A stretch of DNA of 64,000 nucleotides. Origin: a virus. Shown piece by piece: positions 1 to 23,476 of this stretch. The position numbers and the translations under genes were made by a program. A model generated the notes under the pieces. The model was not told the origin of the DNA and ran no database searches. It saw nothing but the letters and a program-made list of their open reading frames with translations. The stretch is taken from the IMG/VR virus record IMGVR_UViG_3300025785_000013, positions 1-64,000 of that record; one strand, 5' to 3'. The stretch's first letter is position 1; each line of letters starts with the position of its first letter.

Positions 1-474
1 CAAAAGGGAGACGTTCCCGGCCACGAATTCCACGGTAATCAGTATGCCGAAGCACGCAGTGCGAACGACCACCTAAAGATTGCAAACAACTTGCATCTTC
101 AGCACGATGACGAAGCCGACCCAGAGAGTGTGTCGGCACAGCACGAAATCGCAGCATCGCTACACCGTGATATGTCTAGCAAGTTGCGCGACCTTGCTCA
201 AAAAGCCTTAGATAGCCAGCACCCCATTACCTCCAGTTCTTTGCGTCACGCCGCTGAACTTCACGCAGAGGCGGCTCAGGCACACGAAGAAGCAGCCAAA
301 GTGACTGCTGAAAAGGGAATTGGTCAAGAAAGTATTGACGCCGCTTTCCCAGCCGTTAGAGCAAGCCGTGGCGCAAATGAGGCTACTGACCAAGCACTCA
401 ATTTGGCAGGGGACACGGGGCTTGCTCCAGTGTCTTCGTCCTTCCCCAGTGGCGCACCTCACTACAACTACTGA
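1..474 (+). CDS. 5'-truncated His/Ala-rich putative internal head (cargo) protein carrying the KGD..GHxFxGNQY tag
   Basis: Frame is open from base 1: QKGDVPGHEFHGNQY (4-45) runs in frame into the ORF-track protein 91..474, which has HxxAAxxH heptads. Confidence 0.75.
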   Translation, partial: QKGDVPGHEFHGNQYAEARSANDHLKIANNLHLQHDDEADPESVSAQHEIAASLHRDMSSKLRDLAQKALDSQHPITSSSLRHAAELHAEAAQAHEEAAKVTAEKGIGQESIDAAFPAVRASRGANEATDQALNLAGDTGLAPVSSSFPSGAPHYNY

Positions 475-529
475 AAAGCAAAACCATTGGTAGCATTATT
501 GCAACCACGACTTAGTAAAGGAAGTCCAA

Positions 530-1120
530 ATGTCGGATTACGATTCGCAAATTGAGGAATGGCTGGTTCTGGCGAAGGGTGGCCCCGGTTCGGGTGAACA
601 CGAGGGACACCCATTCCGTGGCAACGGCACCACCGGTGGTGTCCCACAGTCTCGGAGCCACGACAACCCAGAAGGCGAAAAGTCGTGGAGCCACGGTCAG
701 CACCTTGACGCTGCATCGTCACATATGGCTGCTGCTCAGGCTGCGTTGATGCGTGGTAGCCACGGTGTCGCAATGCGCCACTTCAACACTGCTGCTCGTC
801 ACTACGCTTGGGCTGCTGCTCGGCTCAACACCAACGGCGCAGACCCGATGCTTCACCAGACTGCGAAGACTGGCTACGCTGCTGCCCACCACGCTGGCGA
901 CACTGCTGAAATCGCCAACAAGGACGTTCGTGCCTACGCTTCTGCGCTCCGTTCGGGTGCTGATGCCCACACCCTCTCGCTTCTTGCAATGAAGGCTCAG
1001 GCGAGCCACAGTGAGGCAGTCAAGGCTGCAACCACGGCAATGAACAACGAGAGTGAAATCGGCGCACACCGTATGAGTGCTGCCATCTCCGGTGCCATCC
1101 CGCAGGCAGAATCGGCTTAG
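530..1120 (+). CDS. His/Ala-rich putative head cargo protein with tag LAKGGPGSGEHEGHPFRGN
   Basis: AAGGA RBS-like element upstream; tag near N-terminus; HxxAAxxH helical repeats. Confidence 0.75.
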   Translation: MSDYDSQIEEWLVLAKGGPGSGEHEGHPFRGNGTTGGVPQSRSHDNPEGEKSWSHGQHLDAASSHMAAAQAALMRGSHGVAMRHFNTAARHYAWAAARLNTNGADPMLHQTAKTGYAAAHHAGDTAEIANKDVRAYASALRSGADAHTLSLLAMKAQASHSEAVKAATTAMNNESEIGAHRMSAAISGAIPQAESA

Positions 1121-1122
1121 TA

Positions 1123-1581: not shown

Positions 1582-1589
1582 GACAAAAA

Positions 1590-2663
1590 ATGACCCAGAA
1601 CCCATTCCACCCAGACGCACTTGACCCAATCGGCAAGTCACTCACTGAAATCCTCAAAGGTGACCTTCCGGGACACGAGTTTCGTGGGAACCAATACACC
1701 CAAGGTAGCGCACAGGACACGGCAACTCGTCTGGCCCAGTTCGTCACGAAGAACCGAGGGAACATTTCACCATACACGGCAAAGGACATCGCTCAGGCTC
1801 ACGTTGACCACGCTGGCTACCACAACAAGATGGCAAAATATCTTCACGAGCAAGCCAATGCAGTTGCCCTCAATGGGATGGGCAACGTTGCGCTGGCAAA
1901 GCAAATGGAAAAGGAAGCGCAACTCCACGACAAGGCTTCTTCAGCGCACCTCGCTGCTTCTGAAACCGTGCTAAAGGCTCAGGGTGAGTGGGGTGGACGC
2001 TTGGGTCTTGACGAGAAGAAGCCGACCGCTTCCCAAGTTTCTGCTGCGAGCAACGCTGCTGCAAAGGCAACTGTCGCTGCTTCTGGCCCACAAACCACTG
2101 CTGCACTGGGATGGCAAACTCCTGATATCCAACTTCCCAGTGGCGCACCTTACTTTCTGGCGAAGGGTGGCCCCGGCAGTGGCGCACAGGCTGGCCACCC
2201 TTTTGAGGGGAACCAGTACGCCACTGGCGGTGGCCGTGGTGATGGCCCCAACGACCTCGCTCCTTGGCAAAATGCGCGCAATGTAGCGACGGCAGCAAGT
2301 GACATTCGTGCTAATGAGCGAGCAGGCGTTCCCCAGACCAGTATTCATCAGAGTATTCTTGATAGACACATCGCTATTGGCAAAGAACTCCTGAAGGCTG
2401 CCGAAGATGCCAAGGCTGACCCAGCATCGGCCACAAGCCAGATGGTCAAAGATGGCATTCGTGGTGCCGAACTTGCTGCACAAGCCCATTTCGCTGCTGC
2501 ACAGGCCCACATTGACGCAGCGCCATTCAGTAACACCGTCCATCCCGGCGCTTGGGAGAAGTCACGACTTGACCACGCCGAGGCTGCTAGCCACGCTGCT
2601 GCTGCACTGACTGAAGACACGATGAAGGCAGGCCAACGAGCAAATAGCCGTGTGACGTACTAA
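1590..2663 (+). CDS. Two-module His/Ala-rich tagged cargo protein
   Basis: Start reassigned to ATG 1590 (no overlap with dps). Tags ILKGDLPGHEFRGNQY and LAKGGPGSGAQAGHPFEGNQY each precede a His-rich helical module. Confidence 0.75.
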   Translation: MTQNPFHPDALDPIGKSLTEILKGDLPGHEFRGNQYTQGSAQDTATRLAQFVTKNRGNISPYTAKDIAQAHVDHAGYHNKMAKYLHEQANAVALNGMGNVALAKQMEKEAQLHDKASSAHLAASETVLKAQGEWGGRLGLDEKKPTASQVSAASNAAAKATVAASGPQTTAALGWQTPDIQLPSGAPYFLAKGGPGSGAQAGHPFEGNQYATGGGRGDGPNDLAPWQNARNVATAASDIRANERAGVPQTSIHQSILDRHIAIGKELLKAAEDAKADPASATSQMVKDGIRGAELAAQAHFAAAQAHIDAAPFSNTVHPGAWEKSRLDHAEAASHAAAALTEDTMKAGQRANSRVTY

Positions 2664-2666
2664 TAA

Positions 2667-2972
2667 ATGGCCACTACTTCACCAAACCAAACTTCGCTGT
2701 GGGCAAACACACCGGGCAGTAGCGTCTCTTGCTCTACTGCTTCTGGTGGAACCACGCTTTTGGTCGCCAACCAGCAACGTCAGGGCGTTTGGATTACAAA
2801 CGGTTCCAGCACGGCTGGCAACATTCTCTGGCTCTCTCTCGGTGGCACGGCAGCCACGGGTGCTGGAATCGGAGTACAACCAAGTTCCAGTTGGTTTTCC
2901 AATCAGTTCAGTGGACAAATCAACGGGATTGCAACTAACGCCACGATTTCCGTGGGCATTTCGGAAATCTAA
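2667..2972 (+). CDS. Small beta-rich putative virion protein
   Basis: 101 aa, S/T/G-rich, ANQQRQGVWITN motif; tightly packed in the operon. Confidence 0.55.
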   Translation: MATTSPNQTSLWANTPGSSVSCSTASGGTTLLVANQQRQGVWITNGSSTAGNILWLSLGGTAATGAGIGVQPSSSWFSNQFSGQINGIATNATISVGISEI

Positions 2973-2986
2973 GAAAGGGCAGTGAA

Positions 2987-3454
2987 ATGACTGTTTCCAA
3001 CGCAGAAATCGCAGAGTGGATTTTGAAGTCCTTTGGCTACGATGTCATCAAGGATATGGCTGGCCACGAGTTCCACGGCAACCAGTACACGCAGGGTTCC
3101 GGCAGTGGCCCGAACACCACTTCTAACCCCGAACTGCACCGTCAAGGCGATGCTGGACGTGACCGTTGGGCCGCAATGGTCAGTCGCTACAACGACCCCG
3201 GCCGCCAATACCGTGAGGGTACCCCGGATGCAGGTAGTGGAAAGGTCGGCCACGCCGAAGGCCCAATGGGTCAAATGGGTACGCCGGACGTTTCACCAAG
3301 CAGGCCTGATTCGTCGTACCACACCAGTGGTCTTGGTAGTGGTGGTGCGGGTAGCCCCGACATTACGCAGGGTCACGCTTTCCAAGGGAACAAGTACGCA
3401 GGCGGTCTTCCGAAAGACCACCCCCTCCACGACATACTGCACGAAGAAGGCTAG
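2987..3454 (+). CDS. Gly-rich, probably disordered tagged cargo protein (two tag copies)
   Basis: VIKDMAGHEFHGNQY and GHAFQGNKY. Confidence 0.7.
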   Translation: MTVSNAEIAEWILKSFGYDVIKDMAGHEFHGNQYTQGSGSGPNTTSNPELHRQGDAGRDRWAAMVSRYNDPGRQYREGTPDAGSGKVGHAEGPMGQMGTPDVSPSRPDSSYHTSGLGSGGAGSPDITQGHAFQGNKYAGGLPKDHPLHDILHEEG

Positions 3455-3509
3455 TAAGTATTTCCAATTCTCGGTGTAGTCTTTCTAAAGACGCGAAAGG
3501 ATTTCTCGT

Positions 3510-4817
3510 ATGATTCAAGTTCCAAACACCACGCCAGACGTTGTGACCTTTTACCAAAAGGGCCGTGACGAGGTGGCTGGGCGCATCGCTGGCGACCAGA
3601 TTGCCAAGGCTGCCCGTATGGAAGTTGAGGCTCTTTCAGCAGTTGACAACGCCAACTTCCGTCTTGTGAAGGCCACCGAGCAGATGAAGGCCGCTGAAAT
3701 CGCCTACTTCACTGCCGTTGAGAAGGGCGCATCGAACCGCGAAGAACTGCGCTCAATTTACAACAACACGCTCGCTGGCTACCGTGACGCTGACAAGGCT
3801 GCTGAAAAGGCTGTTGACGAACTGTCGCTCGTCAAGTCTGCTTTGGAAGGTCTTCGTGACATCGCCAAGCGTGAAGTTTCGGACACGGAGCGTCAAGACC
3901 TCGCTGAAAAGGGTAAGGCTATGCCCGACGGCTCCTACCCAATCAAGACGGTTGGCGACCTGAAGAACGCCATCTCGTCGTATGGTCGTGCCAAGAACCC
4001 AGATGCGGTCAAGGCGCACATCATCGCACAGGCAAAGGCCCTGAATGCGACTGACCAACTTCCCGAATCTTGGTCAGATTCCACCACCAAATCACTCCGA
4101 AAGGACGCGGCGATGGCCGATACTTACAACGAAGCAGTCCCGGCTGCGCTGAGGAACCTCTGCCCATCCTGTATGGGGCACGGCGAGGAATCTTGCCCCA
4201 CCTGCAAGGGCGCTGCTGCCGTCTCTGACGAAATGGTTCTGGGTTCGATTTACGACTACCCGGACAACCCGGAACACCCGATGATGAAGAACGCTTTCAG
4301 CACCGAGGCGTTGCTTACCCGTGACTTCCAAAAGTCGGCTGCCTACCAGAACTACATCTTCACCAAGGGTGGCGAGGGTTCTGGCGCACAGCCCGGTCAC
4401 CCGTTCAACGGCAACCAGTACACCGGTGGCGTTTCCACCTCTGCTCGTGGCATCAAGGAAGGCTGGAAGTCCAAGATGGCTCGCTACGCCAAGGCTGCCG
4501 AAGGCCACCTCGCTAACGGTGTCAAGGCAATGGCCGATGGTCGTGCGCTGAAGGCTGCTGGCCAACACGCTGCTGCTGCTGCCAAGTTCTTGGAATCCAA
4601 GGGCCACTTTGAAAAGGGTGCTGGCGCACACTACGGAATCAGCACGGTTCTGAAGGAACACGCTGACCACCCGGACGTGAAGTCGGGCAAGAATATGCCT
4701 GCCGGTGTCCAGTCCCAAGGCTTCCACTACGGCGAGGCTGACCGCATCCGTACTGACCTGAAGGCTGGTGCTGCGTACCAAGCCGACCTCGCAAGTCGCA
4801 AGGCTGCTGGCCAGTAA
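3510..4817 (+). CDS. Head-associated multidomain protein: coiled coil, DUF6582-like (GSYPI) domain, CxxCxGxG Zn finger, tagged His-rich module
   Basis: AMPDGSYPIKTVGDLKNAISSYGRAKNP..LPESW; CPSCMGHG..CPTCKG; FTKGGEGSGAQPGHPFNGNQY. Confidence 0.7.
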   Translation: MIQVPNTTPDVVTFYQKGRDEVAGRIAGDQIAKAARMEVEALSAVDNANFRLVKATEQMKAAEIAYFTAVEKGASNREELRSIYNNTLAGYRDADKAAEKAVDELSLVKSALEGLRDIAKREVSDTERQDLAEKGKAMPDGSYPIKTVGDLKNAISSYGRAKNPDAVKAHIIAQAKALNATDQLPESWSDSTTKSLRKDAAMADTYNEAVPAALRNLCPSCMGHGEESCPTCKGAAAVSDEMVLGSIYDYPDNPEHPMMKNAFSTEALLTRDFQKSAAYQNYIFTKGGEGSGAQPGHPFNGNQYTGGVSTSARGIKEGWKSKMARYAKAAEGHLANGVKAMADGRALKAAGQHAAAAAKFLESKGHFEKGAGAHYGISTVLKEHADHPDVKSGKNMPAGVQSQGFHYGEADRIRTDLKAGAAYQADLASRKAAGQ

Positions 4818-4836
4818 ATCCACACATTGTCGTAGC

Positions 4837-4882
4837 AGTGCCACTACTGAAATCCCGAAGTCTGGGATAAAGTAGTGGCACT
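4837..4882. other. Intergenic inverted repeat (hairpin)
   Basis: AGTGCCACTACT...AGTAGTGGCACT 12-bp perfect stem plus inner ATCCC/GGGAT; no U-tract. Confidence 0.7.
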
Positions 4883-4902
4883 TGCTATTTCTAGGAGAAC
4901 TT

Positions 4903-7257
4903 ATGTCTTCCGATGGTCAAATTCTTTCGTGGGTCAAGTTCGCTCGTACATTTGAAATCCACAAGGCCGGAGATGCTTCTGGCTTAATTGACTGGTACGA
5001 AGACGGTGCTGATGGCCAGATTGACTGGGGCCAGCCCGGAGACTTTGAGCAATGCGTCGCTATTGCTGGAAAGTATATTGACAACCCCGAAGGCTTTTGC
5101 CAACTGCGTCATATTGGAGCAACCGGGGAGCCAGCAGGCCACGCCGAAAGTGAAATCTCCAAAGCCGATGACGATACCGACTACACGGGCATCATTTCTG
5201 ACCGCAAGGGCGAGCCAGCGAACAAGAAACTCTACAGCCGGGTCAAGGCAGACGCAAAGAAGAAGTTCGATGTCTACCCATCAGCAGTCGCAAACGGCTG
5301 GGTTGTCCAAGAGTACAAGCGTCGTGGTGGAACCTACAGGAAGCCTGTAGCAAAGTCAGAATCCTTTACCCCTCCAAAGGGCGTTCAAGAAGCAGCGAAG
5401 AAGGCTTTGGCGTGGATGAAGGATGGAAAGGCTGGCGACGGATTCACCTCAGTGGGCCGTAAACGAGCCTCAGACCTCGCCAACGGCCACGCTGTGTCTA
5501 TGGACACCCTGAAGCGTATGAAGGCCTATTTTGACCGTCATCAGGGCGACAAGGATTCACCACACTGGGATGAGCCAAGCCCCGGCAAGGTGGCGTGGTA
5601 TGCGTGGGGTGGCGATGCTGGCTACTCGTGGGCCAAGTCGGTTGTGGGCAGTGAAATCCAAAAGGGCGACTTCCTCGGACACATCTTCCACGGAAATCAG
5701 TTCACGGGTGGAGAAGCGTCAGGCCGTGCTGAAAAGTTGTCTTCCAAACTGAGCAAGAAGACCTACATTGACCCGGCATCGGCAGGCCCACTCATCAACG
5801 AAGCCAGAGACATTGCCGACATTCACCAAGACCGTTGGAAGCAAATCGTCTCATCCATCCATAACGTCCCAGAAGGCTTGCAAAGCGACAAGGCTAGGTT
5901 CCTCTCGTCGCTCGCCAGTGACCAGTGGCGGGCCTACTCAGCCAATTCAGCAACGGCAGATGCTATCGAAAAGTACCTGCGGGCTGGGAAAAACTTCAAA
6001 ATTGTTCCAGCATCAGCAGCGAAGGCAGCAGCAGCCAGCGCACAGGCCGACAAGTCGTGGGAACGAAACAAGGACTTCATCAGCACCAACACGGGCCAAC
6101 TCGCTCTCACTAAGGGAGATGACCCCGGCCACCCCTTTCGTGGGAATCAGTGGACAGGTGGCGAAGGCAACACTGCCCCGGACAATAAATCACCACTGGA
6201 AGGCGTGAAGCCAAACCCCACGAGCCAAGACTTGGGAGAACGAGTTCTCACTCCAAAGGGCGATACAAGGGAAGACAGAAGGCAGTTTGCCGTCAAAGTG
6301 CTGAAAAGCCTGAACGACGGGAAGCAACCCGTCATTGACGAGAAGAACTTGGAAACTTTTTTTGAGGGGATGAAGGGTGGAATCGGCCACGAGTTCCTGA
6401 AGTCCGACATTACGGAACTTCGCATTGACGGAACACGGTTGATGGGCAAGGACGGTCTGGGCATCGCACGAGTGGATATGCCTCAGGTGGAAACCGAACA
6501 ACGCCCACAGTTCCTCAGCGACTTGGAGAAGAACAACGGCGTGACGGCAACCAAGGAAGACGTTGACCCAACTACCTTGAAGCCCGTGCAGAAGGAAGTG
6601 TTTGCAGTGAAATCTGCTGCCATCTTCCGGTCTTTCAAGGACAGTGCCATCCCGGACAAGATGAGGATTCTCATTTCCAAAGATGGCTACGTCCTTGACG
6701 GTCACCACACTTGGGCAGCAGCAGTTGGCATCCACTTCCACAACGGAGCCAAGATGCCTGTCTACCGACTGTCGGTGAACCACGGCGAAGCGTTGAAACT
6801 CACCACCCAGTGGGCTAACGCCAACAACGCCGAGAACCAAGGGCAAGGGAAGCCGACGGCAACCAAGAAGGCACTGGACTTCATCACTTCGACGCTCCTT
6901 TCCGAGTACTTGTTCTTCAAGGGGGACTTGCAGGGTCACGTCTTCCGAGGCAACCAACATTCCAAAGGTGGAATCGTTCGATTCGACCCTTACAACGCCC
7001 TCTTTACGGCTCACTGCGCTTCAGGGCATCAGAACACTGTCAGGGTGCCAGAGCAGTGGATTGGTAGAAACGCAGACGGTTCGTTCAACGGCCAGTTCGT
7101 GACCGGTGCGCCGGTGTACGTCTGCTCTACCTGCTCACGCCCCATTGACAACCGTTGGCAACTCGTGAACGGCCAGAAGCCAGTATCACCACCTCCAACC
7201 CCGACTGGTAGCCTTTACCTTGGGTTCGGCCAGTCACCGAAGAACTACGTCAAATAG
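4903..7257 (+). CDS. Head-associated polyprotein: three small phage head domains plus three tagged modules, including a ParB/Srx-like domain and a C-terminal Zn ribbon
   Basis: AGGAG RBS at 4893. Motifs IDWGQPGDFEQCV; YPSAVANGWVVQEYKRRGG; TLKRMKAYFDRH..VAWYAWGGDAG; MPQV..LKPVQ..ILISKDGYVLDGHHTWAA; CASGH..CSTC. Confidence 0.75.
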   Translation: MSSDGQILSWVKFARTFEIHKAGDASGLIDWYEDGADGQIDWGQPGDFEQCVAIAGKYIDNPEGFCQLRHIGATGEPAGHAESEISKADDDTDYTGIISDRKGEPANKKLYSRVKADAKKKFDVYPSAVANGWVVQEYKRRGGTYRKPVAKSESFTPPKGVQEAAKKALAWMKDGKAGDGFTSVGRKRASDLANGHAVSMDTLKRMKAYFDRHQGDKDSPHWDEPSPGKVAWYAWGGDAGYSWAKSVVGSEIQKGDFLGHIFHGNQFTGGEASGRAEKLSSKLSKKTYIDPASAGPLINEARDIADIHQDRWKQIVSSIHNVPEGLQSDKARFLSSLASDQWRAYSANSATADAIEKYLRAGKNFKIVPASAAKAAAASAQADKSWERNKDFISTNTGQLALTKGDDPGHPFRGNQWTGGEGNTAPDNKSPLEGVKPNPTSQDLGERVLTPKGDTREDRRQFAVKVLKSLNDGKQPVIDEKNLETFFEGMKGGIGHEFLKSDITELRIDGTRLMGKDGLGIARVDMPQVETEQRPQFLSDLEKNNGVTATKEDVDPTTLKPVQKEVFAVKSAAIFRSFKDSAIPDKMRILISKDGYVLDGHHTWAAAVGIHFHNGAKMPVYRLSVNHGEALKLTTQWANANNAENQGQGKPTATKKALDFITSTLLSEYLFFKGDLQGHVFRGNQHSKGGIVRFDPYNALFTAHCASGHQNTVRVPEQWIGRNADGSFNGQFVTGAPVYVCSTCSRPIDNRWQLVNGQKPVSPPPTPTGSLYLGFGQSPKNYVK

Positions 7258-7265
7258 GAGCAGCG

Positions 7266-7571
7266 ATGAAGGCTAGAGACATTTTCACCAACCTGAAGAA
7301 AGACGCAACCCCGGCTCCCGAAGCCAAGATGCTCTACTTCTACAACGTTTCGATGCCCGAAAACGGTTGCTACGGGACTGCCACGCTGGAAAACGGCGTT
7401 CTGACTGCCGATGAGGGAACCGCAGCCAATATGGTGCAGGCCATCCGTGACCGTGCAGCCAACGACGGGATGGACAACTTCACGGACAGTGAAATCTACG
7501 ACTACCTGAACGGTTGGAGCAACGGACTGATGTTCGCCACCGACGAGCCTACGACGTGGACAGTTGACTAA
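7266..7571 (+). CDS. Small acidic hypothetical protein
   Basis: AGGAG RBS; stop/start coupled to the next gene. Confidence 0.65.
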   Translation: MKARDIFTNLKKDATPAPEAKMLYFYNVSMPENGCYGTATLENGVLTADEGTAANMVQAIRDRAANDGMDNFTDSEIYDYLNGWSNGLMFATDEPTTWTVD

Positions 7572-8716: not shown

Positions 8717-8737
8717 TCTTTAAATGGGTGAAATGGT

Positions 8738-9781
8738 ATGAACTTCCGACAAATTCTCGAAATCCTTAAAGGTGACGTTGTAGGTCACGAATTCCACGGC
8801 AATCAGTGGATTAACGGTTCAGGAAAGTTCAATGCAGGTGGTGGAAAGCCCCGACCAGCAGCGAAGCCGAAGCCTGCCGGTCAGCGCAGGGCAGCCGCGC
8901 CAAAGCCAGCACCAGCCCCACGCCGTGTTGCAGCCCCCAAGCCCCCGGCTCCTACCCCACCACGCCCCGAAACACCAAAGCCAACTCCACCGCCAGTAAA
9001 ACTCCCTGAGCCTCAGCAATCCCTGAAGCCAGCCGTCAAGGACTGGAATGAACCCGGCCCCAAGGTTCTGGCCACCAACGAAATTGCTTCCTACGACAAG
9101 AAGTTAGGTTCCAAGGGTGGAGCGCAGAACACTGGACTGCAACTCGTCACGATGAAGGATGGCAGTGCCGGTGTGGTGAAGGGTCTAGCAGAATGGGGAA
9201 AAAATTCCCCAAAACAACTTGCTAAGGCCGAAGTCGCTGCTGGAAAAATCGGCGCAGCGATGGGTATTTCAATTGCCAAGGCTGAGCCGGTTCCGGGTGA
9301 GCCGAAGAAGATTGTGATGCCCCTCATCAAGGGTGAAACAGCATTTGACAGTCGTGGAGCAGACAATGTTTCATCGGAGTGCAACCAGCAGCGAAACGAA
9401 ATGTACTTTTTCGACAAGTTGATTGGCAACGGTGACCGTCATTTTGGAAACTTTATGTACACCAATCTGACCCCCCGCAACTGGGTCACTCAGGATAGCC
9501 AAGTCGTAGCGATTGACCACTCGCTTTGCTTGGGAAACGCCCGTCACGAGCCTTTTCCACCACAGTCCTCCGACCTTGTGCAATTTGCTGTGTTGAAGCG
9601 CATAAACTCCGATAGGTTGACCCAGATGTACACCGGCCTGAAGGATTTGCAGGCAGCCAAGAACAACACCACCTTTGAAAAAGATGCTGTTGATAAGTGC
9701 GTCGGAGTAATGGAAAAGGCGTTCCCCTTTGTCACTGGCAACGACCCAACTGCGAAGAAGATGTACGACAGGATGGTCTAG
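8738..9781 (+). CDS. Tagged HipA/CtkA/PI3-PI4K-like kinase 2
   Basis: N-terminal tag, Pro-rich linker, GVVK..E, FDKLIGNGDRHFGNFM, VVAIDHSLCL. Confidence 0.8.
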   Translation: MNFRQILEILKGDVVGHEFHGNQWINGSGKFNAGGGKPRPAAKPKPAGQRRAAAPKPAPAPRRVAAPKPPAPTPPRPETPKPTPPPVKLPEPQQSLKPAVKDWNEPGPKVLATNEIASYDKKLGSKGGAQNTGLQLVTMKDGSAGVVKGLAEWGKNSPKQLAKAEVAAGKIGAAMGISIAKAEPVPGEPKKIVMPLIKGETAFDSRGADNVSSECNQQRNEMYFFDKLIGNGDRHFGNFMYTNLTPRNWVTQDSQVVAIDHSLCLGNARHEPFPPQSSDLVQFAVLKRINSDRLTQMYTGLKDLQAAKNNTTFEKDAVDKCVGVMEKAFPFVTGNDPTAKKMYDRMV

Positions 9782-12700
9782 TGACGTTCCAACCGAACTT
9801 TGTTAAATTCACCAACACTGACGTAATCGGAACGGAGCCTTTGGAAGGTCGCTTCAAGGGGAACCAGAACGACGGTTTCACCTACGTCCGGTTTGCCGAT
9901 GGCTCTGGTGGCATCATCAAGACGATGAAGGACTGGGTTGGCAACAAGACCGGCAGGCTCTACCCTGCTGAAATCTTGGCAGCGCAGGAGTACTTGGCAT
10001 CGCTGGTGGGCGAAACAATGAACGCTCCGGTTAGGGACTGCCACCTCTACGGCTCTGGTGCCAAGACCGTCATTATGCCGTTCATCGTCGGCCAGACTGG
10101 TGAAGAAGCCGGGCAGACCGAGTTGCCGGAGAACGCTCAGGGAACAGCACTGAAACTGTTCGACTACCTCACCGCCAATGCAGACCGTCGGCCCAAGAAT
10201 TGGATTTCCACCCCCGACGGGCGCATCGTGGGCATTGACCACGCCTTGTGCAACTTCCGGCCCCGTGTTCTAAAGCCTGATTTCGTTAGCGACCTTTGGA
10301 ACAACGGAGTATCACCAGAATCGCTGCTCATTCTCCAGCCGAAGTTGGCAAACCTCGCCATTGACTTCCACCAGATTGGAATGGGCGACAAGCACGAGAC
10401 AATGATGCAGAACTTGTCTCAACTCATCGCGGCTTTCCAAACCTTGGCCAAGTTCGCCACGGTAGTGAAATCCGTTGTGGGGGCAGACCGAATCGTTGTC
10501 AAGGGCGACGAGCCGGGACATCCGTTCAGAGGCAACCAATGGACTGGTGGAAACGCCGAACTTGCTAAGGGCGCAGCCGAATACGCCAAGAGCGTCGGCT
10601 TGCAGCGACCCGACATTGACTACTCCAAGGTGAAAGTCAACCCGTCACGGGCTTTGGAAATCGCCAAGGACTACGTTGCACTGCCGTCTGTGGATGAATC
10701 CACTCGTGCTGCCTACCGAGAGTTCGTCAAGGAAACCCATCAGCAATTTGAGTACCTAACCAAGACCCTTGGGGTCAAGGTCGAAGTAGTCAAGGAAGAC
10801 CCGTACAAGGATGCTGCTGAAATGGCAGCAGACGTTCACGACAACCATCACTTGGCCGTTCTGTCTGCCAGTAGCACTGGTGGCCACCCGTTCGTCACCA
10901 ACCGGGAAATCGAAGAATTCCGTGCTGTCCACGACGCTTTTGGACACGCTGCCACTGGGCGCAACTTCGACAGGAATGGTGAAGAAGCGGCGTGGGCCAG
11001 CCACGCCTCAATGTATGGCCCACTCGCTCGTCAGGCAATGACCACTGCAACTCGTGGTCAAAACTCCGTGATGACCCAACTCGGTGGTGGATTCCCAGAG
11101 CAGAAGGGCGCACTGCTCCCAGAGAAGTGGTCAGACCCATCAACAGCGGGGATGTCCGATGATGTAGTGAAATCTGATGGCGACATCCGGCCCTGCTTCG
11201 CCGGTGGCCGAGCGCAATACGACTATCAGCAGTCGGATGTCCAAAAGGGCGACGTGGATGGTCACCAATTCCACGGGAACCAGTGGGTCACTGTCGGTGG
11301 CAAGTTCAATGCTTCTGGTGGAAAAGCAAAGGCTCCGAAGGCTGCCAAGGCTCCAAAGCCCCGGAAGCCACTCATCCCAGCAGCCAAGCCACCAAAGGCT
11401 GCACAAGTAGCCAAGCCAAAGCCTGTTGCCCCATCACCACCGCCTGCCCCTCAGCCTCAGCCTGCTCCAAAGCCAGAACCCAAGGTGGAAAAGCCCTCGG
11501 CACCGTTGGCCCCGGCCCCGAAGTCGGCCTCAATTGGGCATATCGCTGCAAAGAGCGAGTTTCCACCGGCGACAACTGCGCTCATCAAGAAACTTGTTTC
11601 CGAGTACACCGACAAAGTGGTGTTCAAGAAGGAAGACAACCCCGAACAAAGAAGGGCAACGCTTCAAGAAAACCTCACCAACTTGCTGTTGCAACCCACC
11701 GAATACTTGCGACAGCGTGACATTGCTGTAAAAAACAAGTCCAGCGACCCGTCAAGTACAGCAATTCTCCAAATGCTCGGCTACTCCGAGAGGCCAACTG
11801 TACTCAGTGAAAAGCAGTTTGCCAATACGCCGGGACAGGTTCTTTATTCTGGCCTTACGGACGGCAGCAGTGGCATTATGACGAAGTTGTCGCAAATGTA
11901 CTACGGGGATGTCCCCCGTTATGGTGGTGGCGTGTATGGAGCAGCGTTTTACACCTCTCCGGGCAAGTTGACCCCAGCCGGTTATGCTAATTACAAAGGG
12001 ACAAATGGTTGCATTTTTCGTTGCAAATTAGACAATCCTGCCAATGTTTGGCAATCTGATTACCATCAAAAGGACAGGCCGAGTAACCAGCAACCATATC
12101 TGCATAATAGCGACTTGCTGAGCAATGAAACTGCTGCCTACATTGAAAGGTCGTTTATAAACGAAATTCCCGGCGAAGCACACTTTTCACCAGAACAACA
12201 AAAAACTCTTGCGTCTATAGGAGAGGCATTTCCTAATCTAGAAGACGCATTTGGTGGTTATGAAATTTACAGTACTCTCCCAGCACTTGCGGGTTTCGAC
12301 GCTTACCACGACACTACGAACAACTACACAATGGTGTTGAATCGCAGTTCGATGATTCTGCCTGAAAACACCACAGTTTCCGTAAATATGAAAGAATCAT
12401 ACTTTGGAGAAGGGGGTGCCTTACCCAATCCAATTGCTGGAAACCGAGATGGGTTGAAGGATGTCCCTGTCCCGTTGCCCGACAAAGTTGAGAAAGGCGA
12501 CCTCGTTGGACACCTGTTCCACGGGAACCAGTACACGAATGGCATCCAAGTAGCAACGTTCTTGGCTTCAGCCCTGCATCGCAGGGCAGCGAAGAACGAA
12601 CCGGGCATCACCAAAGAGATTGCCGAGACTGCTACCGAAGTAGGGGCGCAGCGCATTAAACCAGACAAGGTGCTGAAAAGCGCAGATTCGCTGGCTCGCA

Positions 12701-15700
12701 AGATTGCCCTTGACGCACGAGACTTCGTTGGCCCCAAGTCCGAAGCCGAACAGCAGGCATCGCTGGCGGTCAAGGATTCAATTCGCTACACCTTGGCGTT
12801 GGATGAGAAGAAGTTCAGTGACGGAGTGAAATCGGCTTTGGCAGACCTCCGTAAGGAAGGCTATGAAACCATTGCCATTCGCAACTACTTCAACACCGAC
12901 CCTCACAACTCCTACAAAGGCATCAACGGCCTGTTCCGCGACCCCATCAAGAACCAAATGTTTGAGGTGCAGTTCCACACCCCGGAATCAGCAGCAATGG
13001 CCACGAAGACCCACGGAATCTACGAGCGCATCCGTGACCTGAATCCAAAAGACCCTGCCTACATAAAGGGTCAGGCCAAGATGGTGAAAATGTGGGCCAA
13101 AGTTTCCATTCCTGCTGGCGTGGAAGACATCGGCACCCGGAGTATCAAGGCTTCTGCGTGGACGTACTACGAGTATTCCACCACCGAAGGAAAGCCGTTC
13201 GCCTACTACCGATACGACGGAACTGACGCAGAGGCTTACGTTGAGGGACAGTGGATTCCAGCATCGGCGTTCTTGGAGAACTGGATTGAGGGCAACCCAC
13301 TTCTGACTGAACTTGACGGCCCACCAGAGGAAGCGATTTCCAAAGGTGACGTTCCCGGCCACCAGTTTCACGGTAATCAGTGGTTGACCGTCGGGGGTGG
13401 CTTCAACACCCGTGGTGGAAAGCCGAGTTCGGCAGCCAAGGCCCCGGCGAAGGCACCAAAGGCACCCAAAGCAAAGGCTCCGAAGGCTCCTAGGGTTCCA
13501 AAAGCCCCTAAGCCTGTCGCATCACCACCAGAGCCGAAGCCAGAACCAAAGCCAGAGCCAGAGCCAACCCCACCAAAGGCCGAGACACCAGCACCCGAAC
13601 TAGAGTTCAAAAGCGAGTTGTCACCAAAGGAGACTGCTGAAATTCGCCAGTACGTCGAAAACGCTTCAAAGGACATCCCAATCTCAGGCCAACTTGGAGA
13701 CAAGTCGCAAGATGACGCTCGTAGGGCGTTGTTCGCCAAGAATTTGACAATGGTGTTGTGCAACCCCGGCGAATACAACAGGCAATTCAAAATTGCAAAA
13801 GAGCAACGAAGCAACGACCCTATGAACGCAGCAATTCTTCAGATGCTTGGATACGGAGCAAAGCCAAGGGTTGTCAGCGAAGAAGAATTCGCCAAGGTAC
13901 CAACTCCGTGCCTGTTCTCCGGCATCAAGACCGGCTCAACTTCAGTCGGAACCAAGATGTCCCAGTTGTACTACGGGAAGGTTCCTCGCTACGGTGGTGG
14001 TTTTTACGGAGCAGCGTTCTACACCTCCCCTGAGAAGTACACCCCGGTGGGGTACACGAGAATTGGTAGAGGTGGAGACAGTTGCATTTTTAGAGCAAAG
14101 TTGGAAAGCACATCGAACACTTGGACTTATGACGGCTTGGCCTACGAGAGGCCAGAAGGTATTTCACTGCTGCCCTTGATGAAACAGGGCATCACCCCAG
14201 ACCAAGCGTCGGCTTACGGCAAAATTGACGCAGTAATGACCGACTACTCAATGAGGATGAGTGCCGTTCCAGCACTTGCTGGCTTTGATGCCCTGACCGT
14301 ACCGCAAGTCGGTATTAAAAACGATGACTACACGATGCTGTTAAACCGTGGTGCTTTGGTTCTCCCGAAGAACATCACCATTGGTAGTGACAAATCCTTT
14401 AACGAGTTTAACTTTGATGAAAAGGGCGCAGTAGGCAACGAACTGACCAACGTGCCGGTTCAACCATACGAAAAGCCCGTACAAAAGGGCGACGTTGAAG
14501 GCCATCCCTTTCACGGAAACCAGTGGACAGGTGGAGAGGGTGGCAGTGAAATCTCCCAAGCCGAGAGCAAGCCGGGGGACAACGTTTCCGTGTACCTCAA
14601 CAGTCGCAAGGTCGCAGAAGCGGTGGAAAAGGGTCTAACAGGCCCCAAGTGGGATATGAAGGTTCGTGGTGACTGCAAAGCAGCAATCGCCAAGGACATT
14701 GCTTCTCGCCTCGGCCCCGAATGGGATGAAGCGTTAGGCAGCAGGCAGCCAGAGGAACGGGCAGCAGCCGTCAGCAAACTCGTCTCGGAATGGGCCAACA
14801 CGTCGAACGACACTTCTCCACTGTCATTGGCAATGCAGCAATTAGCAGCCAAGGAGTTCGGTCTTGCTGGACATTTTGACTGGGATTACAAAGAAGCAGC
14901 AAGGCAATTCCTCGGCTACAGCAGTAGGGGGAAACTTGATTCAGCACAACAAGACCAAATTACAAATTTAGCAACAGCAACACAGGCACAAGTTGACAAA
15001 CTTGTCAGTGAAAACGGTGACTTCTACAAGGCTTTCCTCCGGGCGCAGTACAACGCAACGCAGGATTACTTCAAGGCTGCTGGAATCAAGGAAGTTTCCG
15101 TGTACCGAGGGATGACTTTCCGTTCTCAAAGTTCTCCACCGGATTGGACAAAAGGTTTTAAAACAAATTCAGAAGTGCCACTTCGCCCGCTTTCTTCGTT
15201 TGCCTATTCAGCAACCGAAGCAAGTCATTTTGGCGAAGTTATGATTTCTGGCACCGTCCCAGTAGAGCGAGTTCTGTCGTGTGCTAGAACCGGCGTGGGT
15301 TGTCTAGACGAAGACGAAATTGTTGTAATGGCTGGCCCCGGCAAATGGCAAGTCAATGGTCAAAACGATTTTCGCAATGCCGATTTGCAAGGTGCCAAAA
15401 TTAAAGACATTGCAGAGTACGCTAATTTTTCGGGTGCCAACCTCCAAGGCGCAAAGTTTGAAACCCCCTCACAAAACGCAAATTTTTCAGGGGCAAATCT
15501 TACAAACGCTGACTTTTCAACAGACCGCACTCCTTTTTTGAATGGCAACGGCTCCAACGGAAACCTTAACCACGTTTGGTATGGCGCAAACTTCAGCAAT
15601 GCCAACCTCACTGGCGCAAACTTGTCGGGTTCATTTTTTTCAGCAAGCGATTTCATTAAAGCCAATTTTTCTGGGTGCAACTTGTCAAAGGCCGAGATTG

Positions 15701-15909
15701 GCAACTCACGCCTTTCGGAAGCCAATCTTGAAGGTGCAAACCTTGAAGATGTAAACTTTAGAGATGTAAGCCTTAAAGGTGCAAATCTTGCTAACGCAAA
15801 CCTGTCAGGAGCAGAATTTGCAGCCGTGCAGTCTGACAAAGACACCGTGCTTCCAAGCGGATACGAATTCAGCCAGTACGGAATCCGTCAAGTCAGTAGA
15901 AACGCGTAA
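9781..15909 (+). CDS. About 2040-aa polyvalent effector polyprotein: kinase 3, HDxFGH domain, 2x ART-like, RelA/SpoT-like plus putative immunity, R-S-E ART, pentapeptide repeats
   Basis: Start reassigned to GTG 9781, overlapping the upstream TAG. Five tag copies delimit the modules. Motifs DRRPKN/IDH; FRAVHDAFGH; YGGGxYGAAFY; KSADSLARKI/DSIRYT/YKGIN/FEVQFHT; VYRG/LSSF/EDE; ANLSG repeats. Confidence 0.85.
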   Translation: MTFQPNFVKFTNTDVIGTEPLEGRFKGNQNDGFTYVRFADGSGGIIKTMKDWVGNKTGRLYPAEILAAQEYLASLVGETMNAPVRDCHLYGSGAKTVIMPFIVGQTGEEAGQTELPENAQGTALKLFDYLTANADRRPKNWISTPDGRIVGIDHALCNFRPRVLKPDFVSDLWNNGVSPESLLILQPKLANLAIDFHQIGMGDKHETMMQNLSQLIAAFQTLAKFATVVKSVVGADRIVVKGDEPGHPFRGNQWTGGNAELAKGAAEYAKSVGLQRPDIDYSKVKVNPSRALEIAKDYVALPSVDESTRAAYREFVKETHQQFEYLTKTLGVKVEVVKEDPYKDAAEMAADVHDNHHLAVLSASSTGGHPFVTNREIEEFRAVHDAFGHAATGRNFDRNGEEAAWASHASMYGPLARQAMTTATRGQNSVMTQLGGGFPEQKGALLPEKWSDPSTAGMSDDVVKSDGDIRPCFAGGRAQYDYQQSDVQKGDVDGHQFHGNQWVTVGGKFNASGGKAKAPKAAKAPKPRKPLIPAAKPPKAAQVAKPKPVAPSPPPAPQPQPAPKPEPKVEKPSAPLAPAPKSASIGHIAAKSEFPPATTALIKKLVSEYTDKVVFKKEDNPEQRRATLQENLTNLLLQPTEYLRQRDIAVKNKSSDPSSTAILQMLGYSERPTVLSEKQFANTPGQVLYSGLTDGSSGIMTKLSQMYYGDVPRYGGGVYGAAFYTSPGKLTPAGYANYKGTNGCIFRCKLDNPANVWQSDYHQKDRPSNQQPYLHNSDLLSNETAAYIERSFINEIPGEAHFSPEQQKTLASIGEAFPNLEDAFGGYEIYSTLPALAGFDAYHDTTNNYTMVLNRSSMILPENTTVSVNMKESYFGEGGALPNPIAGNRDGLKDVPVPLPDKVEKGDLVGHLFHGNQYTNGIQVATFLASALHRRAAKNEPGITKEIAETATEVGAQRIKPDKVLKSADSLARKIALDARDFVGPKSEAEQQASLAVKDSIRYTLALDEKKFSDGVKSALADLRKEGYETIAIRNYFNTDPHNSYKGINGLFRDPIKNQMFEVQFHTPESAAMATKTHGIYERIRDLNPKDPAYIKGQAKMVKMWAKVSIPAGVEDIGTRSIKASAWTYYEYSTTEGKPFAYYRYDGTDAEAYVEGQWIPASAFLENWIEGNPLLTELDGPPEEAISKGDVPGHQFHGNQWLTVGGGFNTRGGKPSSAAKAPAKAPKAPKAKAPKAPRVPKAPKPVASPPEPKPEPKPEPEPTPPKAETPAPELEFKSELSPKETAEIRQYVENASKDIPISGQLGDKSQDDARRALFAKNLTMVLCNPGEYNRQFKIAKEQRSNDPMNAAILQMLGYGAKPRVVSEEEFAKVPTPCLFSGIKTGSTSVGTKMSQLYYGKVPRYGGGFYGAAFYTSPEKYTPVGYTRIGRGGDSCIFRAKLESTSNTWTYDGLAYERPEGISLLPLMKQGITPDQASAYGKIDAVMTDYSMRMSAVPALAGFDALTVPQVGIKNDDYTMLLNRGALVLPKNITIGSDKSFNEFNFDEKGAVGNELTNVPVQPYEKPVQKGDVEGHPFHGNQWTGGEGGSEISQAESKPGDNVSVYLNSRKVAEAVEKGLTGPKWDMKVRGDCKAAIAKDIASRLGPEWDEALGSRQPEERAAAVSKLVSEWANTSNDTSPLSLAMQQLAAKEFGLAGHFDWDYKEAARQFLGYSSRGKLDSAQQDQITNLATATQAQVDKLVSENGDFYKAFLRAQYNATQDYFKAAGIKEVSVYRGMTFRSQSSPPDWTKGFKTNSEVPLRPLSSFAYSATEASHFGEVMISGTVPVERVLSCARTGVGCLDEDEIVVMAGPGKWQVNGQNDFRNADLQGAKIKDIAEYANFSGANLQGAKFETPSQNANFSGANLTNADFSTDRTPFLNGNGSNGNLNHVWYGANFSNANLTGANLSGSFFSASDFIKANFSGCNLSKAEIGNSRLSEANLEGANLEDVNFRDVSLKGANLANANLSGAEFAAVQSDKDTVLPSGYEFSQYGIRQVSRNA
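15367..15840 (+). repeat. Pentapeptide repeats (A[ND][LF]xx)
   Basis: ADLQG, ANFSG, ANLQG, ANLTN, ANLTG, ANLSG, ANLEG and similar. Confidence 0.9.
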
Positions 15910-15918
15910 ACTGAGCCA

Positions 15919-17277
15919 ATGGAAACCAACGCGTCAAACACCCTGAACGAAGACTGGATTAAGACCGGTACTTGGGACTTGTGGCGTATGAACACGCTCA
16001 TCACCACCATCCCCGACCTGTTGTGGTTCTTGAACGTCACTGACGCACCCCTCGCAGACCAGCAGGCAGCCGTACTGAAAATGACGAAGATGCCGTCGTG
16101 GATTCCGGCCCCGCAGGAACTTAAAGATGCTGCGACGGCGTTCCTCGCCACTGGTGAAATCCAAAAGGGGGATGTCAACGGTCACGTTTTTCACGGGAAC
16201 CAATGGGTCGCTGGCGAAGGTGGAAGTGGAATCTCCCCCGAAGCAACAAAAAAACTGTCCGAGGATGTCCAAAACTTCACGGAGTGGCTGACACAGGAAA
16301 AGGCCTTTGCTAGTGACCCTGCTGAAAACGAGCGACGGGCAGCCATCTTCCAAAGAAACTTCACGCACATCGTGTGCAACCCCGACGAGTACTGGAAGCA
16401 GTACACCATTGCCCGTGACAATCGGAACACCGACCCAGAAAGCGCAGCAATTCTGAGGATGCTTGGCTATGCCGAGAAGCCAACGGTGGTCAGTGAGGCG
16501 AAGTTTGCTGAAACCCCCGGCCCGTGCTTGTTCTCCGGCATTACTGCTGGAAGCAGTGGATTAGAAGCCAAACTGTCATCCCTTTATTTTGGAACGCCAA
16601 GGTTCGGTGGTGGAAACTACGGTGCTGCGTTTTACACATCAAGTACCAAAGACACTGCTGCCGATTACTCTAGGCCAGACGCTGGTGAACCGGCAGGTGG
16701 CTGCATCTTCCGTAGCAAGTTGGCCAACCCGTCGAACGTGCTGGAAAGTCAAGACATCCCGAACTCCTTTGGAGCAGCGGGCTGGGACACGATAATGAGC
16801 AAGAACCGGCTTTTCGCTGACGCTCAAATGTACGGTGGCGAAATCTATGGTGGAAACGGGCAGCAACAAGCCGCCTACCAAAAAATGGCTAAGGCAATTG
16901 CATTGCCCTTTGAAAGTTTCCAAATTGCCAGTTCGCTTCCTGCGCTCGCCGGGTACGACGCTTATCACGACAACAATCGCAACTACACAATGGTGCTGAA
17001 TCGCAGCGCAATGGTTCTCCCTGAAAGCGTCAGCATTTCCCCCAACGGTTTTGGATACGACAACGTTGACGAGACTGGCGCACTTGACCCGGCCAAGAAC
17101 GTGCTGGTGTCCTCACTCGCCAAGGACAGCGAAGTCGCCAAGACAGCCAACGCCCTGCTCGTTCAGGCCCTTGGAAGCAAACTGCGCTCCCACGACGCAA
17201 TCACCAAGACCGTTCGGGGAATGAATGTCTCGGCAGCCGAGTACGACGCTTGGGTTGCCCGAAACGGACAGTGGTAG
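15919..17277 (+). CDS. Tagged cargo protein with the third copy of the ART-like (GGGxYGAAFY) domain
   Basis: IQKGDVNGHVFHGNQW at 16165; clear paralogy to two modules of the preceding polyprotein; TAAACT 6 nt before ATG. Confidence 0.8.
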   Translation: METNASNTLNEDWIKTGTWDLWRMNTLITTIPDLLWFLNVTDAPLADQQAAVLKMTKMPSWIPAPQELKDAATAFLATGEIQKGDVNGHVFHGNQWVAGEGGSGISPEATKKLSEDVQNFTEWLTQEKAFASDPAENERRAAIFQRNFTHIVCNPDEYWKQYTIARDNRNTDPESAAILRMLGYAEKPTVVSEAKFAETPGPCLFSGITAGSSGLEAKLSSLYFGTPRFGGGNYGAAFYTSSTKDTAADYSRPDAGEPAGGCIFRSKLANPSNVLESQDIPNSFGAAGWDTIMSKNRLFADAQMYGGEIYGGNGQQQAAYQKMAKAIALPFESFQIASSLPALAGYDAYHDNNRNYTMVLNRSAMVLPESVSISPNGFGYDNVDETGALDPAKNVLVSSLAKDSEVAKTANALLVQALGSKLRSHDAITKTVRGMNVSAAEYDAWVARNGQW

Positions 17278-21424: not shown

Positions 21425-21541
21425 GAGAAATGACGAAGCGGCCCGTTGGAGAGGCCGCCTCGTCGGTACTTCTGGTGTTGGTTAACGCAGCATTGCAGTA
21501 CTTCGGGTTAGGGCTTGGCAGACTGTCTGCCAACCGAAGCC
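21422..21541 (-). ncRNA. Candidate sRNA (about 120 nt) with intrinsic terminator
   Basis: Promoter upstream; 5' hairpin TTGGCAGA/TCTGCCAA; 3' hairpin 21432-21464 followed by AUUUCUCUU. Confidence 0.55.
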
Positions 21542-21546
21542 CCGTT

Positions 21547-21598: not shown

Positions 21599-21604
21599 AG
21601 TGAA

Positions 21605-23430: not shown

Positions 23431-23476
23431 TTCAGTAGTCAAGCCCTAGATGGGCAATGAATCGTTAGGAGATGGC

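Follow-up and report, generated by a model that had tools for sequence, protein, structure and literature searches.

A header peptide recurring at module borders beside the head genes of an uncultured phage, with a lysine context linked to an XkdF-type protease

The tag and the tagged genes of the window

The DNA analysed here, hereafter the window, comprises positions 1 to 64,000 of an IMG/VR virus record of 83,477 bp (IMGVR_UViG_3300025785_000013), which IMG/VR classes as linear and 69% complete. Its first 17 kb hold a block of co-oriented genes in which a short peptide, termed the tag, recurs at the start of unrelated protein modules. A six-frame search with the regular expression GH.F.GN gave exactly 18 matches in the window, all on the plus strand and in frame within open reading frames (ORFs) up to position 17277, and no match in the remaining 47 kb. 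The chance expectation is 0.023 matches in the window (300 nucleotide shuffles) and 0.001 in the 13 proteins (residue shuffles). Of the 13 co-oriented ORFs in this block, ten carry the tag; those at 1123-1581 (ferritin/Dps-like), 2667-2972 and 7266-7571 do not.

The tag has a short form, K-GDxxGHxFxGNQ[YWFH] (13 copies), and a long form, K-GG[PE]GSGxxxGHPFxGN (three copies), in addition to two degenerate copies (Table 1). In 17 of the 18 copies it starts at a Lys with a hydrophobic residue at position -2, the copy at 3371 being the only one that lacks the Lys. The upstream residues of copy 1, cut by the contig end, were read as V-Q-K from the near-identical relative L027. A decayed nineteenth copy, ..NFVK FTNTDVIGTEPLEGRFKGNQ (NFVK..EGRFKGNQ), heads the third kinase at the start of the 2070-residue ORF.

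At the nine invariant residues, the identity of third codon positions is 0.47, and codon usage alone would predict 0.50. The copies make use of every synonymous codon, and their mean pairwise nucleotide identity is 67%. Since third-position identity is no higher than codon usage predicts, the repeat is kept by selection on the peptide, and not by recent duplication or DNA-level recombination. An earlier note on this DNA had reported 18 copies split 13/3/2 over 10 of 13 ORFs, with the Lys and the hydrophobic residue two positions upstream in 17 of them, and both counts are exact; its statement that conservation is at the protein level only agrees with the codon comparison.

Table 1. Tag copies and genes of the window (aa, amino acids; AF2, AlphaFold2; ART, ADP-ribosyltransferase; pLDDT, predicted local distance difference test; regex, regular expression)
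Positions	Strand	Feature	G of GH (nt)	Basis
1..474	+	C-terminal 157 aa of a two-tag protein (539 aa in L027, behind portal and XkdF protease)		
4..45	+	Tag copy 1, short form, K-GDVPGHEFHGNQY, ORF cut by contig end	19	regex; L027 gives VQK upstream
575..631	+	Tag copy 2, long form, LAK-GGPGSGEHE-GHPFRGNG	605	regex
1656..1697	+	Tag copy 3, short form, ILK-GDLPGHEFRGNQY	1671	regex
2163..2219	+	Tag copy 4, long form, LAK-GGPGSGAQA-GHPFEGNQY	2193	regex
3050..3088	+	Tag copy 5, degenerate, VIK-DMAGHEFHGNQY	3062	regex
3371..3397	+	Tag copy 6, degenerate, GHAFQGNKY, no Lys	3371	regex
4365..4421	+	Tag copy 7, long form, FTK-GGEGSGAQP-GHPFNGNQY	4395	regex
4882..7257	+	791-aa three-tag protein: DUF5872, ParB-like (DGHH) module of phrog_2859, Cys-rich C-terminal module		
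5662..5703	+	Tag copy 8, short form, IQK-GDFLGHIFHGNQF	5677	regex
6112..6153	+	Tag copy 9, short form, LTK-GDDPGHPFRGNQW	6127	regex
6919..6960	+	Tag copy 10, short form, FFK-GDLQGHVFRGNQH	6934	regex
7571..9781	+	Two single-tag HipA/PI3K-like kinase genes, 7571-8716 and 8738-9781		
7601..7642	+	Tag copy 11, short form, ILK-GDVPGHDFHGNQW, behind 11-residue leader	7616	regex
8768..8809	+	Tag copy 12, short form, ILK-GDVVGHEFHGNQW, behind 11-residue leader	8783	regex
9697..15909	+	2070-aa polyprotein, six modules joined by five tags		
10501..10542	+	Tag copy 13, short form, VVK-GDEPGHPFRGNQW, kinase 3/module b junction	10516	regex
11245..11286	+	Tag copy 14, short form, VQK-GDVDGHQFHGNQW, then basic Pro/Ala/Lys-rich linker	11260	regex
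12493..12534	+	Tag copy 15, short form, VEK-GDLVGHLFHGNQY, heads alarmone-synthetase module	12508	regex; AF2/Foldseek for module
12535..13341	+	RelA/SpoT-type small alarmone synthetase module		AF2 core pLDDT 80-93; Foldseek
13342..13383	+	Tag copy 16, short form, ISK-GDVPGHQFHGNQW	13357	regex
14485..14526	+	Tag copy 17, short form, VQK-GDVEGHPFHGNQW, heads ART-like + pentapeptide-repeat module	14500	regex
15919..17277	+	452-aa single-tag protein with third copy of module X		
16165..16206	+	Tag copy 18, short form, IQK-GDVNGHVFHGNQW	16180	regex
23450..24253	+	Scaffold-like protein (267-aa ORF)		6 [VILMF]-x-K-[AGS] sites among 13 Lys
25039..26118	+	Major capsid protein, phrog_1005, lambda-E type		

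The 2070-aa ORF consists, in order, of kinase 3, module b, module X, a small alarmone synthetase, a further module X and a DRAT-like ADP-ribosyltransferase (ART) with pentapeptide repeats, so that several unrelated enzymatic or effector domains share one polypeptide, as in polyvalent proteins. Three HipA/PI3K-like kinases occur among the tagged modules of the window. The AlphaFold2 model of the alarmone synthetase module was matched by Foldseek to 8vx3, with an E-value of 1.8e-12 and a TM-score of 0.78, and a Pfam search of 10 isolated window modules mostly returned no family. Downstream of the tagged block follow genes for a methyltransferase, an exonuclease, the scaffold-like protein, a phrog_673 protein and the lambda-E-type capsid protein, and then the tail genes; the scaffold-like and capsid genes lie 6-8 kb downstream of the block.

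The rest of the record holds five more copies of the tag, at 66921 and 83200 on the plus strand and at 79325, 81141 and 81757 on the minus strand. The five genes that carry them lie at 66837-67463, at 83122-83477 and, on the minus strand, at 78717-81838 of the record (L001 14717-17838). Three of them form a divergent cluster beside an SNF2 helicase gene and a ParB-like gene, all with an LLKSxSxYPVxK leader.

Several further details of the tagged block were recorded. The ferritin/Dps-like gene (PF00210, phrog_3636) stands untagged amid the tagged genes, and is found at the same place in eight other loci. The 2070-aa ORF overlaps the preceding kinase gene by 85 nt, and it may have another start codon or be linked to the upstream gene by a frameshift (region 9697-9900). 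Behind four tags there is a second conserved motif, G[GK]FNxxGGKP (11290-11560, 13390-13640, 7645-7800 and 8812-9010), followed by 60-100 residues of basic, Pro/Ala/Lys-rich low complexity resembling a histone H1 tail; these basic stretches could bind packaged DNA.

Spread, position and predicted disorder of the tag

A search of IMG/VR with the back-translated strict pattern found the tag in at least 112 stretches, with up to 10 copies per stretch. Prokaryote genomes gave only two matches in 596 Gb, both on contigs of metagenome-assembled genomes, and tblastn with tagged proteins and a 28-aa tag peptide gave no true match among 50,697 GenBank phage records. An exhaustive profile search of 1.84 billion representative proteins returned 2,216 protein clusters at E≤0.001, of which 91 reach E≤1e-30; a single protein can have as many as nine tags. 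The tag is restricted to viruses.

In 241 distinct contexts, positions that the search pattern does not force are also conserved: V, I or L at -7 in 86%, H or R at +4 in 95%, and an aromatic ring or His at +8 (typically Y/W) in 98%, in addition to Gly at +11 and +13. The position of the tag was measured in 167 non-redundant ORFs of 113 loci. In 89 of these ORFs, no more than 40 residues separate the first tag from the start. The median distance from tag to tag is 243 aa, with only one case below 100 aa, and that from the last tag to the C-terminus is 200 aa, the tag being almost never C-terminal. These distances indicate that the tag is the header of domain-sized modules. The earlier note had placed the copies near N-termini or at domain junctions and had asked for a profile search of them; the header position in the 167 ORFs bears out this siting.

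The domains behind the tags are diverse. Pfam families found on tagged proteins include ADPrib_exo_Tox, ART-PolyVal, PARP, GNAT, NUDIX, Zeta toxin, 2H phosphoesterase, Tpt1, topoisomerase I, SprT/M48, MuF, portal, kinase and ParB. Together with the window modules, these polyvalent-type domains are in line with the effector-type cargo that the earlier note had suggested. A search of 8.4 million papers for motif strings yielded nothing of relevance, and neither a named family, of which that note had known none either, nor a paper was found for the tag; it is apparently a widespread, undescribed label.

From their arrangement, it is clear that modules have been shuffled among phages at the borders set by the tags. 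Module b lies inside the 2070-aa ORF of the window but forms a gene of its own, with one tag, in G002, a complete contig of 72 kb; the alarmone synthetase module is tagged in L047 and L079, and lies behind ..NEK/ without the core in L105 and L008 (here and below, a slash marks the putative cut). Such shuffling would also be expected if the tags were DNA-level recombination joints that exchange cassettes, or recent duplications without function. The codon data given above, however, already contradict this explanation, and the tag is conserved across phages whose proteases are less than 30% identical, so that we give it hardly any credence.

The core, GDxxGHxFxGNQ[YW], is predicted to be disordered, as AlphaFold gave a pLDDT of 25-40 at three tags flanking well-folded cores. 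An invariant His and an invariant Asn in this Gly-rich, flexible context raise the alternative of a self-cleaving element, for example by Asn cyclisation at GN/Q aided by the His, as in several viral capsid autoproteolyses, and the occurrence of tags in lineages with no identified protease would fit it. Nevertheless, known autoproteolytic sites lie in folded contexts, and self-cleavage leaves unexplained the Lys and its hydrophobic neighbour, their co-variation with an XkdF-type protease and the Lys sites of the scaffold-like protein (see below). We consider it very improbable.

Head-gene context, protease and scaffold-like protein

L027 covers what precedes base 1 of the window. It carries, in order, a WhiB-like gene (408-791), the portal gene (phrog_113), the gene of a 608-aa XkdF-domain protein (2589-4415) and that of the 539-aa two-tag protein, the last 157 residues of which are the first ORF of the window; downstream of it, the genes are those of the window. 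The C-terminus of the 608-aa protein is an XkdF-type Peptidase_S78_2 domain (PF14550, 55 bits). The tagged genes are therefore found beside head-morphogenesis genes, like those of polyvalent proteins, with portal and protease directly upstream in L027 and the head genes of the window downstream. The order of portal, then protease or MuF, then tagged polyproteins recurs in many loci. In relatives the tags are fused to MuF and portal domains, and MuF (PF04233) was detected in 13 of 19 tag-bearing contigs other than the window's record. In that record, itself a 69%-complete fragment, neither PF14550 nor PF04233 gave a match, and none of the tagged ORFs of the window has a MuF domain; an 884-aa protein of G002 has one.

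Two side observations concern L027. Its XkdF-domain protein has an N-terminal extension of ~470 residues, which contains a long acidic tract rich in Ser and Asp and a segment rich in Cys (CANCVACGDNNSCDW..C..C); this extension may be a core or scaffold-like part. The WhiB-like gene upstream of the portal gene, together with the nearest relatives of the capsid protein, points to a possible actinobacterial host. A joining of the ends of the window's own contig was rejected, since they do not overlap, IMG/VR classes the record as linear and incomplete, and the joined frame contains a stop, with no start ahead of copy 1.

The Lys context was compared between three sets of contigs. In the Lys-class set of 19 tag-bearing contigs of at least 43 kb, PF14550 was found in 14, of which 12 exceed the Pfam cut-off, and in all three complete contigs. 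By contrast, it was found in none of 19 size-matched random viral contigs (at least 90% complete in 12 cases) and in none of 14 tag contigs outside the Lys class (three at least 92% complete). The hypergeometric p is ~1e-6 for 14/19 against 0/19, with contigs that are not independent. No S78 over cut-off, ClpP or S49 was found in the 19 Lys-class contigs. A profile search that did not force the Lys revealed that in the non-Lys lineages the core is preceded by [RK]-x-[AL], Leu, Phe or Asp, uniformly within each contig; one non-Lys record has a different, weak candidate for a head maturation protease. The Lys is thus a real element that is separable from the core and tied to the XkdF-type protease.

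The earlier note had proposed checking for this co-occurrence, which the tallies confirm. Its link to an XkdF protease is seen in the relative L027 and in 14 of the 19 Lys-class contigs, and the fragmentary record of the window gave no match. It had also stated that XkdF/S78-type prohead proteases of SPO1/A511-like phages cut after Lys; in the literature searched, no paper that gives this specificity was found to confirm the statement.

The XkdF domains fall into at least three groups less than 30% identical to each other, and a His and a Ser are invariant in them (11 and 19 sequences). The predicted fold most closely resembles that of T4 gp21, with a Z-score of 7.6 and a root mean square deviation of 2.7 over 108 aligned residues, followed by herpesvirus proteases, with the varicella-zoster virus enzyme at a Z-score of 5.6 (VIA-align), and Foldseek gave no match for the protease model in the PDB. 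The model and the invariant residues suggest a catalytically intact enzyme of the prohead-protease fold. Moreover, as the gene fusions read, the protease is itself a tagged module in some relatives. One ORF of G002 joins protease, ..DDLAK/GDFEGHPFRGNQY and a P-loop kinase, and another reads MuF-tag-module-tag-module, whereas P0199 combines tag, ParB, tag, module and protease in one protein. In the AlphaFold2 model of the natural protease-tag chain of G002, the tag region has low confidence and speaks neither for nor against docking.

Two candidates for processing were rejected. The I-x-K before the XkdF domain, considered as an autoprocessing site, belongs to the conserved start of the domain itself. 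An HExxH metallopeptidase was likewise discarded as the processing enzyme, as neither HExxH nor HxxEH occurs in the 13 ORFs; G002 has HEMGH modules.

Other XkdF-domain proteins were noted in passing. P0201 and P0202 have another peptide, K/AFDPNQPRDKDGQW or K/AGFDPNQKRGPLGMW, in the slot behind the Lys, which suggests that the slot can hold alternative tags, also ending in G-x-W. In Arthrobacter phage Salgado (L234, NC_055033, 12610-15510), gp17, annotated as "head maturation protease", has the MuF signature HPGCRCS, and gp18, annotated as "RNA ligase", combines an N-terminal part resembling 2H phosphoesterases with a protease domain of XkdF type; the two GenBank names look swapped or incomplete. 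An Arthrobacter Laroyevirus shares the portal-MuF-XkdF layout and has no tags.

A second candidate substrate is the scaffold-like protein encoded before the capsid gene. Together with its homologues in five other contigs, it has 6-12 [VILMF]-x-K-[AGS] sites per protein, where 0.9-1.7 would be expected. Each protein was shuffled 2000 times: for five of the six, no shuffle had as many sites as the real sequence, and for the remaining one about four had. The excess is specific to K, with none for R, E or D, and is absent in non-Lys or random loci. An unbiased scan for site-rich ORFs gave 14 of 599 in the Lys class, 0 of 136 in the non-Lys class and 0 of 946 in the random contigs. The scaffold-like protein would therefore be a substrate of the same Lys-specific protease. 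The same ORF was also considered as a protease and rejected: it has no family or PDB match, a poor Atlas model and only a weak Mu-like_Pro lead.

The N-terminus of the scaffold-like protein carries the motif ..E[TI]S[GL]V[DT][HR]PA[HN]..VV[MF]K/S (window 23450-23570), which is shared by its homologues in L025, L037, L040, L055, L066, L088, L090, L093, L105 and L290. It resembles a strand of HK97-type proteases, which may explain weak PF04586 matches in G001 and G007.

These data bear on the possibility that the peptide serves in its entirety for processing alone. The core would then be a prime-side docking (exosite) motif by which the head protease cuts module junctions efficiently, and would have no part in addressing, retention or ejection. 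A tag at every junction and not once per polyprotein, the strong co-occurrence with XkdF, the protease directly before a tag in G002 and the disordered, accessible peptide would all be accounted for. However, the same core occurs in the 14 records of the non-Lys class, the putative scaffold sites have no core, and the spacing between Lys and core varies by five residues, the long form having a GG[PE]GSGxxx spacer inserted between Lys and GH. Altogether, the spacer, the context that changes with the lineage and the core-less scaffold sites argue that the core is unlikely to be merely a recognition sequence of the protease, and we regard the processing-only explanation as unlikely.

A candidate header of head cargo and its known parallels

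Upstream of the Lys, N-terminal tags are preceded by leaders of three classes, 11-22 residues long, which recur across loci and all end in hydrophobic-x-Lys: MTNPFSTxxLLKSxSNYPVxK/, MxNLDSEIxxWVxxAK/ and MTNPFxxxNLxPxWxxxxEILK/. As in the capsid-targeting sequence (CTS) of phage T4, a short shared leader ends at the (here putative) protease site, and the leaders are at least as good a candidate for addressing or loading as the core.

On balance, we take it to be probable that the repeats are portable header peptides of polyvalent head-cargo modules, each composed of a Lys context cut by XkdF and a universal, retained disordered core of 13 residues. Most likely, the hydrophobic-x-Lys site would be cleaved by the XkdF-type head maturation protease (Peptidase_S78_2, assemblin/gp21 fold), whose gene, to judge from L027, would immediately follow the portal gene, a short way upstream of the 5′ end of the window contig. 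Cleavage would remove the short leaders of single-module proteins and split the polyproteins into separate enzymes, among them the kinases, the alarmone synthetase and the ART-like and ParB-like modules. If the cut falls before GD, the core would become the new N-terminus of each freed module, where it might serve inside the particle or during exit, for example by retaining or ordering the modules or by threading them through the tail along with the DNA. We infer cleavage, packaging and injection alike. The core might address the proteins to the capsid or drive their ejection, and it also occurs in phages without XkdF. The broader proposal, that GDxxGHxFxGNQ[YW] is the portable cargo handle of thousands of uncultured phages across head types and proteases, so that any protein behind it and a lineage-specific cut site would be loaded, freed and delivered with the DNA, is put forward only tentatively and with more doubt than belief.

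Alternatively, the tags might stay uncut and be flexible linkers. Their short linear motif would then act after infection, within the host cell, for example by docking every effector module to one host hub protein or to phage DNA. A core both disordered and strongly conserved is typical of such motifs; the core is found in lineages that have no recognisable head protease, four copies are followed by the basic stretches that might bind DNA, and some tagged genes lie outside the head block. Against this, the upstream context is uniform within lineages and co-varies with the protease family, the removable-looking leaders end exactly at the Lys, the tagged genes follow portal, protease and MuF and have tags fused to MuF and portal, and cellular genomes and prophages are essentially free of the motif. 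Uncut linkers are thus, in our judgement, a rather improbable explanation.

Several points weigh against a header peptide cut by XkdF. The core is present in the 14 non-Lys records, three of them at least 92% complete, in which no XkdF, S78, ClpP, S49 or S77 was found, the S77 search carrying no weight as it had no positive control. The scaffold-like sites lack the core, so the protease would not need it; taken with the near-complete non-Lys genomes in which none of the five protease families was found, this suggests that cleavage may not be universal. Amphipathic helices, too, can give rise to hydrophobic-x-K-A patterns, although no excess was seen for R, E or D, and the tallied contigs are phylogenetically non-independent. 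Among the tagged genes of the record, five stand apart from the head block, and three of these have the opposite orientation. Neither a protease nor a MuF or portal family was detected in the window's own record, so that for this phage the argument for a protease rests on L027 and on the record being a fragment. In addition, no experimental N-terminus, virion proteome or cultured phage bears the tag.

The closest parallel is found in phage T4, where internal proteins and Alt have a short conserved N-terminal CTS, enter the prohead, where the head protease trims them, and are then injected (PMC3012670; Mullaney and Black 1996, as far as it is summarized in PMC9024508). Both systems place a short N-terminal peptide on unrelated anti-host proteins, with a hydrophobic-x-charged site at its end. 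Unlike in T4, the most conserved part of the tag lies after the putative cut, would stay on the protein and recurs at polyprotein junctions; the P1 residue would be Lys and not Glu, and the protease of XkdF type and not gp21 (S77).

Polyvalent proteins are encoded beside head genes. According to a published proposal, they are packaged and injected, and their processing is mostly the work of zincin-like metallopeptidases embedded in them (Iyer, Burroughs, Anand, de Souza and Aravind 2017; PMC5512222). In that paper the string GNQ is absent, and no junction peptide is described where it deals with cleavage, proteolysis and processing. The tagged proteins are likewise multi-enzyme proteins with ART, kinase, ParB, NUDIX and MuF domains, and they carry the ART-PolyVal and MuF Pfam domains themselves. 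What appears to be new is a defined peptide, retained behind the putative cut, that delimits every module of the polyproteins, heads many single-module genes as well, and whose upstream residue tracks a serine head protease.

For P1 DarB, the N-terminal 30 residues suffice to send the anti-restriction enzyme or a reporter into the capsid (PMC9024508). This signal shares no sequence similarity with the tag, is not repeated at junctions and has no known tie to a cut site. In the giant phages SPN3US and phiKZ, many head-internal proteins, including ejection proteins, are cut at a short consensus by one prohead protease, with multiple cuts in the propeptides (PMC10052503, PMC7411985). Such multiply cut propeptides parallel the scaffold-like protein rich in Lys sites. 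However, they are long and have no shared retained header, the protease and motif differ, and the cuts were mapped by mass spectrometry.

Two further systems offer partial parallels. The MuF-toxin fusions of temperate phages consist of a head-internal anchor domain followed by variable toxin domains, and MuF is frequent in tag-bearing contigs, where it is fused to tags; by contrast, the tagged genes of the window are not fused to MuF, and the tag occurs in uncultured, apparently non-prophage viruses. Encapsulin cargo-loading peptides are short and disordered, sit on unrelated enzymes and load an HK97-fold shell; they are usually C-terminal and bind the shell directly, whereas the tag is mostly a header and has another consensus.

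Phage proteins that travel in the capsid with the DNA are the first weapons against host defences, and to our knowledge the signals by which they are packaged have been worked out in only a few model phages (T4, P1). The tag, a single short peptide, marks more than 2,000 protein clusters, including ADP-ribosyltransferases, kinases, alarmone synthetases, acetyltransferases, nucleases and many folds without a family. If the tag is indeed a header of packaged cargo, the injected effector repertoire of uncultured phages could be listed from sequence, these phages would be carriers of processed effector polyproteins, and it would be explained how giant polyvalent proteins become separate enzymes. 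The tag would then also be a candidate for loading foreign proteins into capsids, as a general, programmable protein-delivery tag. The residue before the tag, which co-varies with the protease family, offers a testable prediction of protease specificity.

Some features of the window lie apart from the tagged genes. The 3081-aa ORF at 44779-54024 directly follows the tape-measure gene and has no tag, and the 1401-aa ORF at 30319-34524, also untagged, has no PHROG or Pfam match. No RNA run is listed among the sequencing runs that contain the window stretch, which is present in 20 freshwater metagenome runs from 2016-2017. The nearest cultured relatives of the capsid protein are those of Microbacterium and Arthrobacter phages, with an identity of 47%. 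A protein with a LexA DNA-binding domain is encoded within the head-gene block, at 21515-21997.

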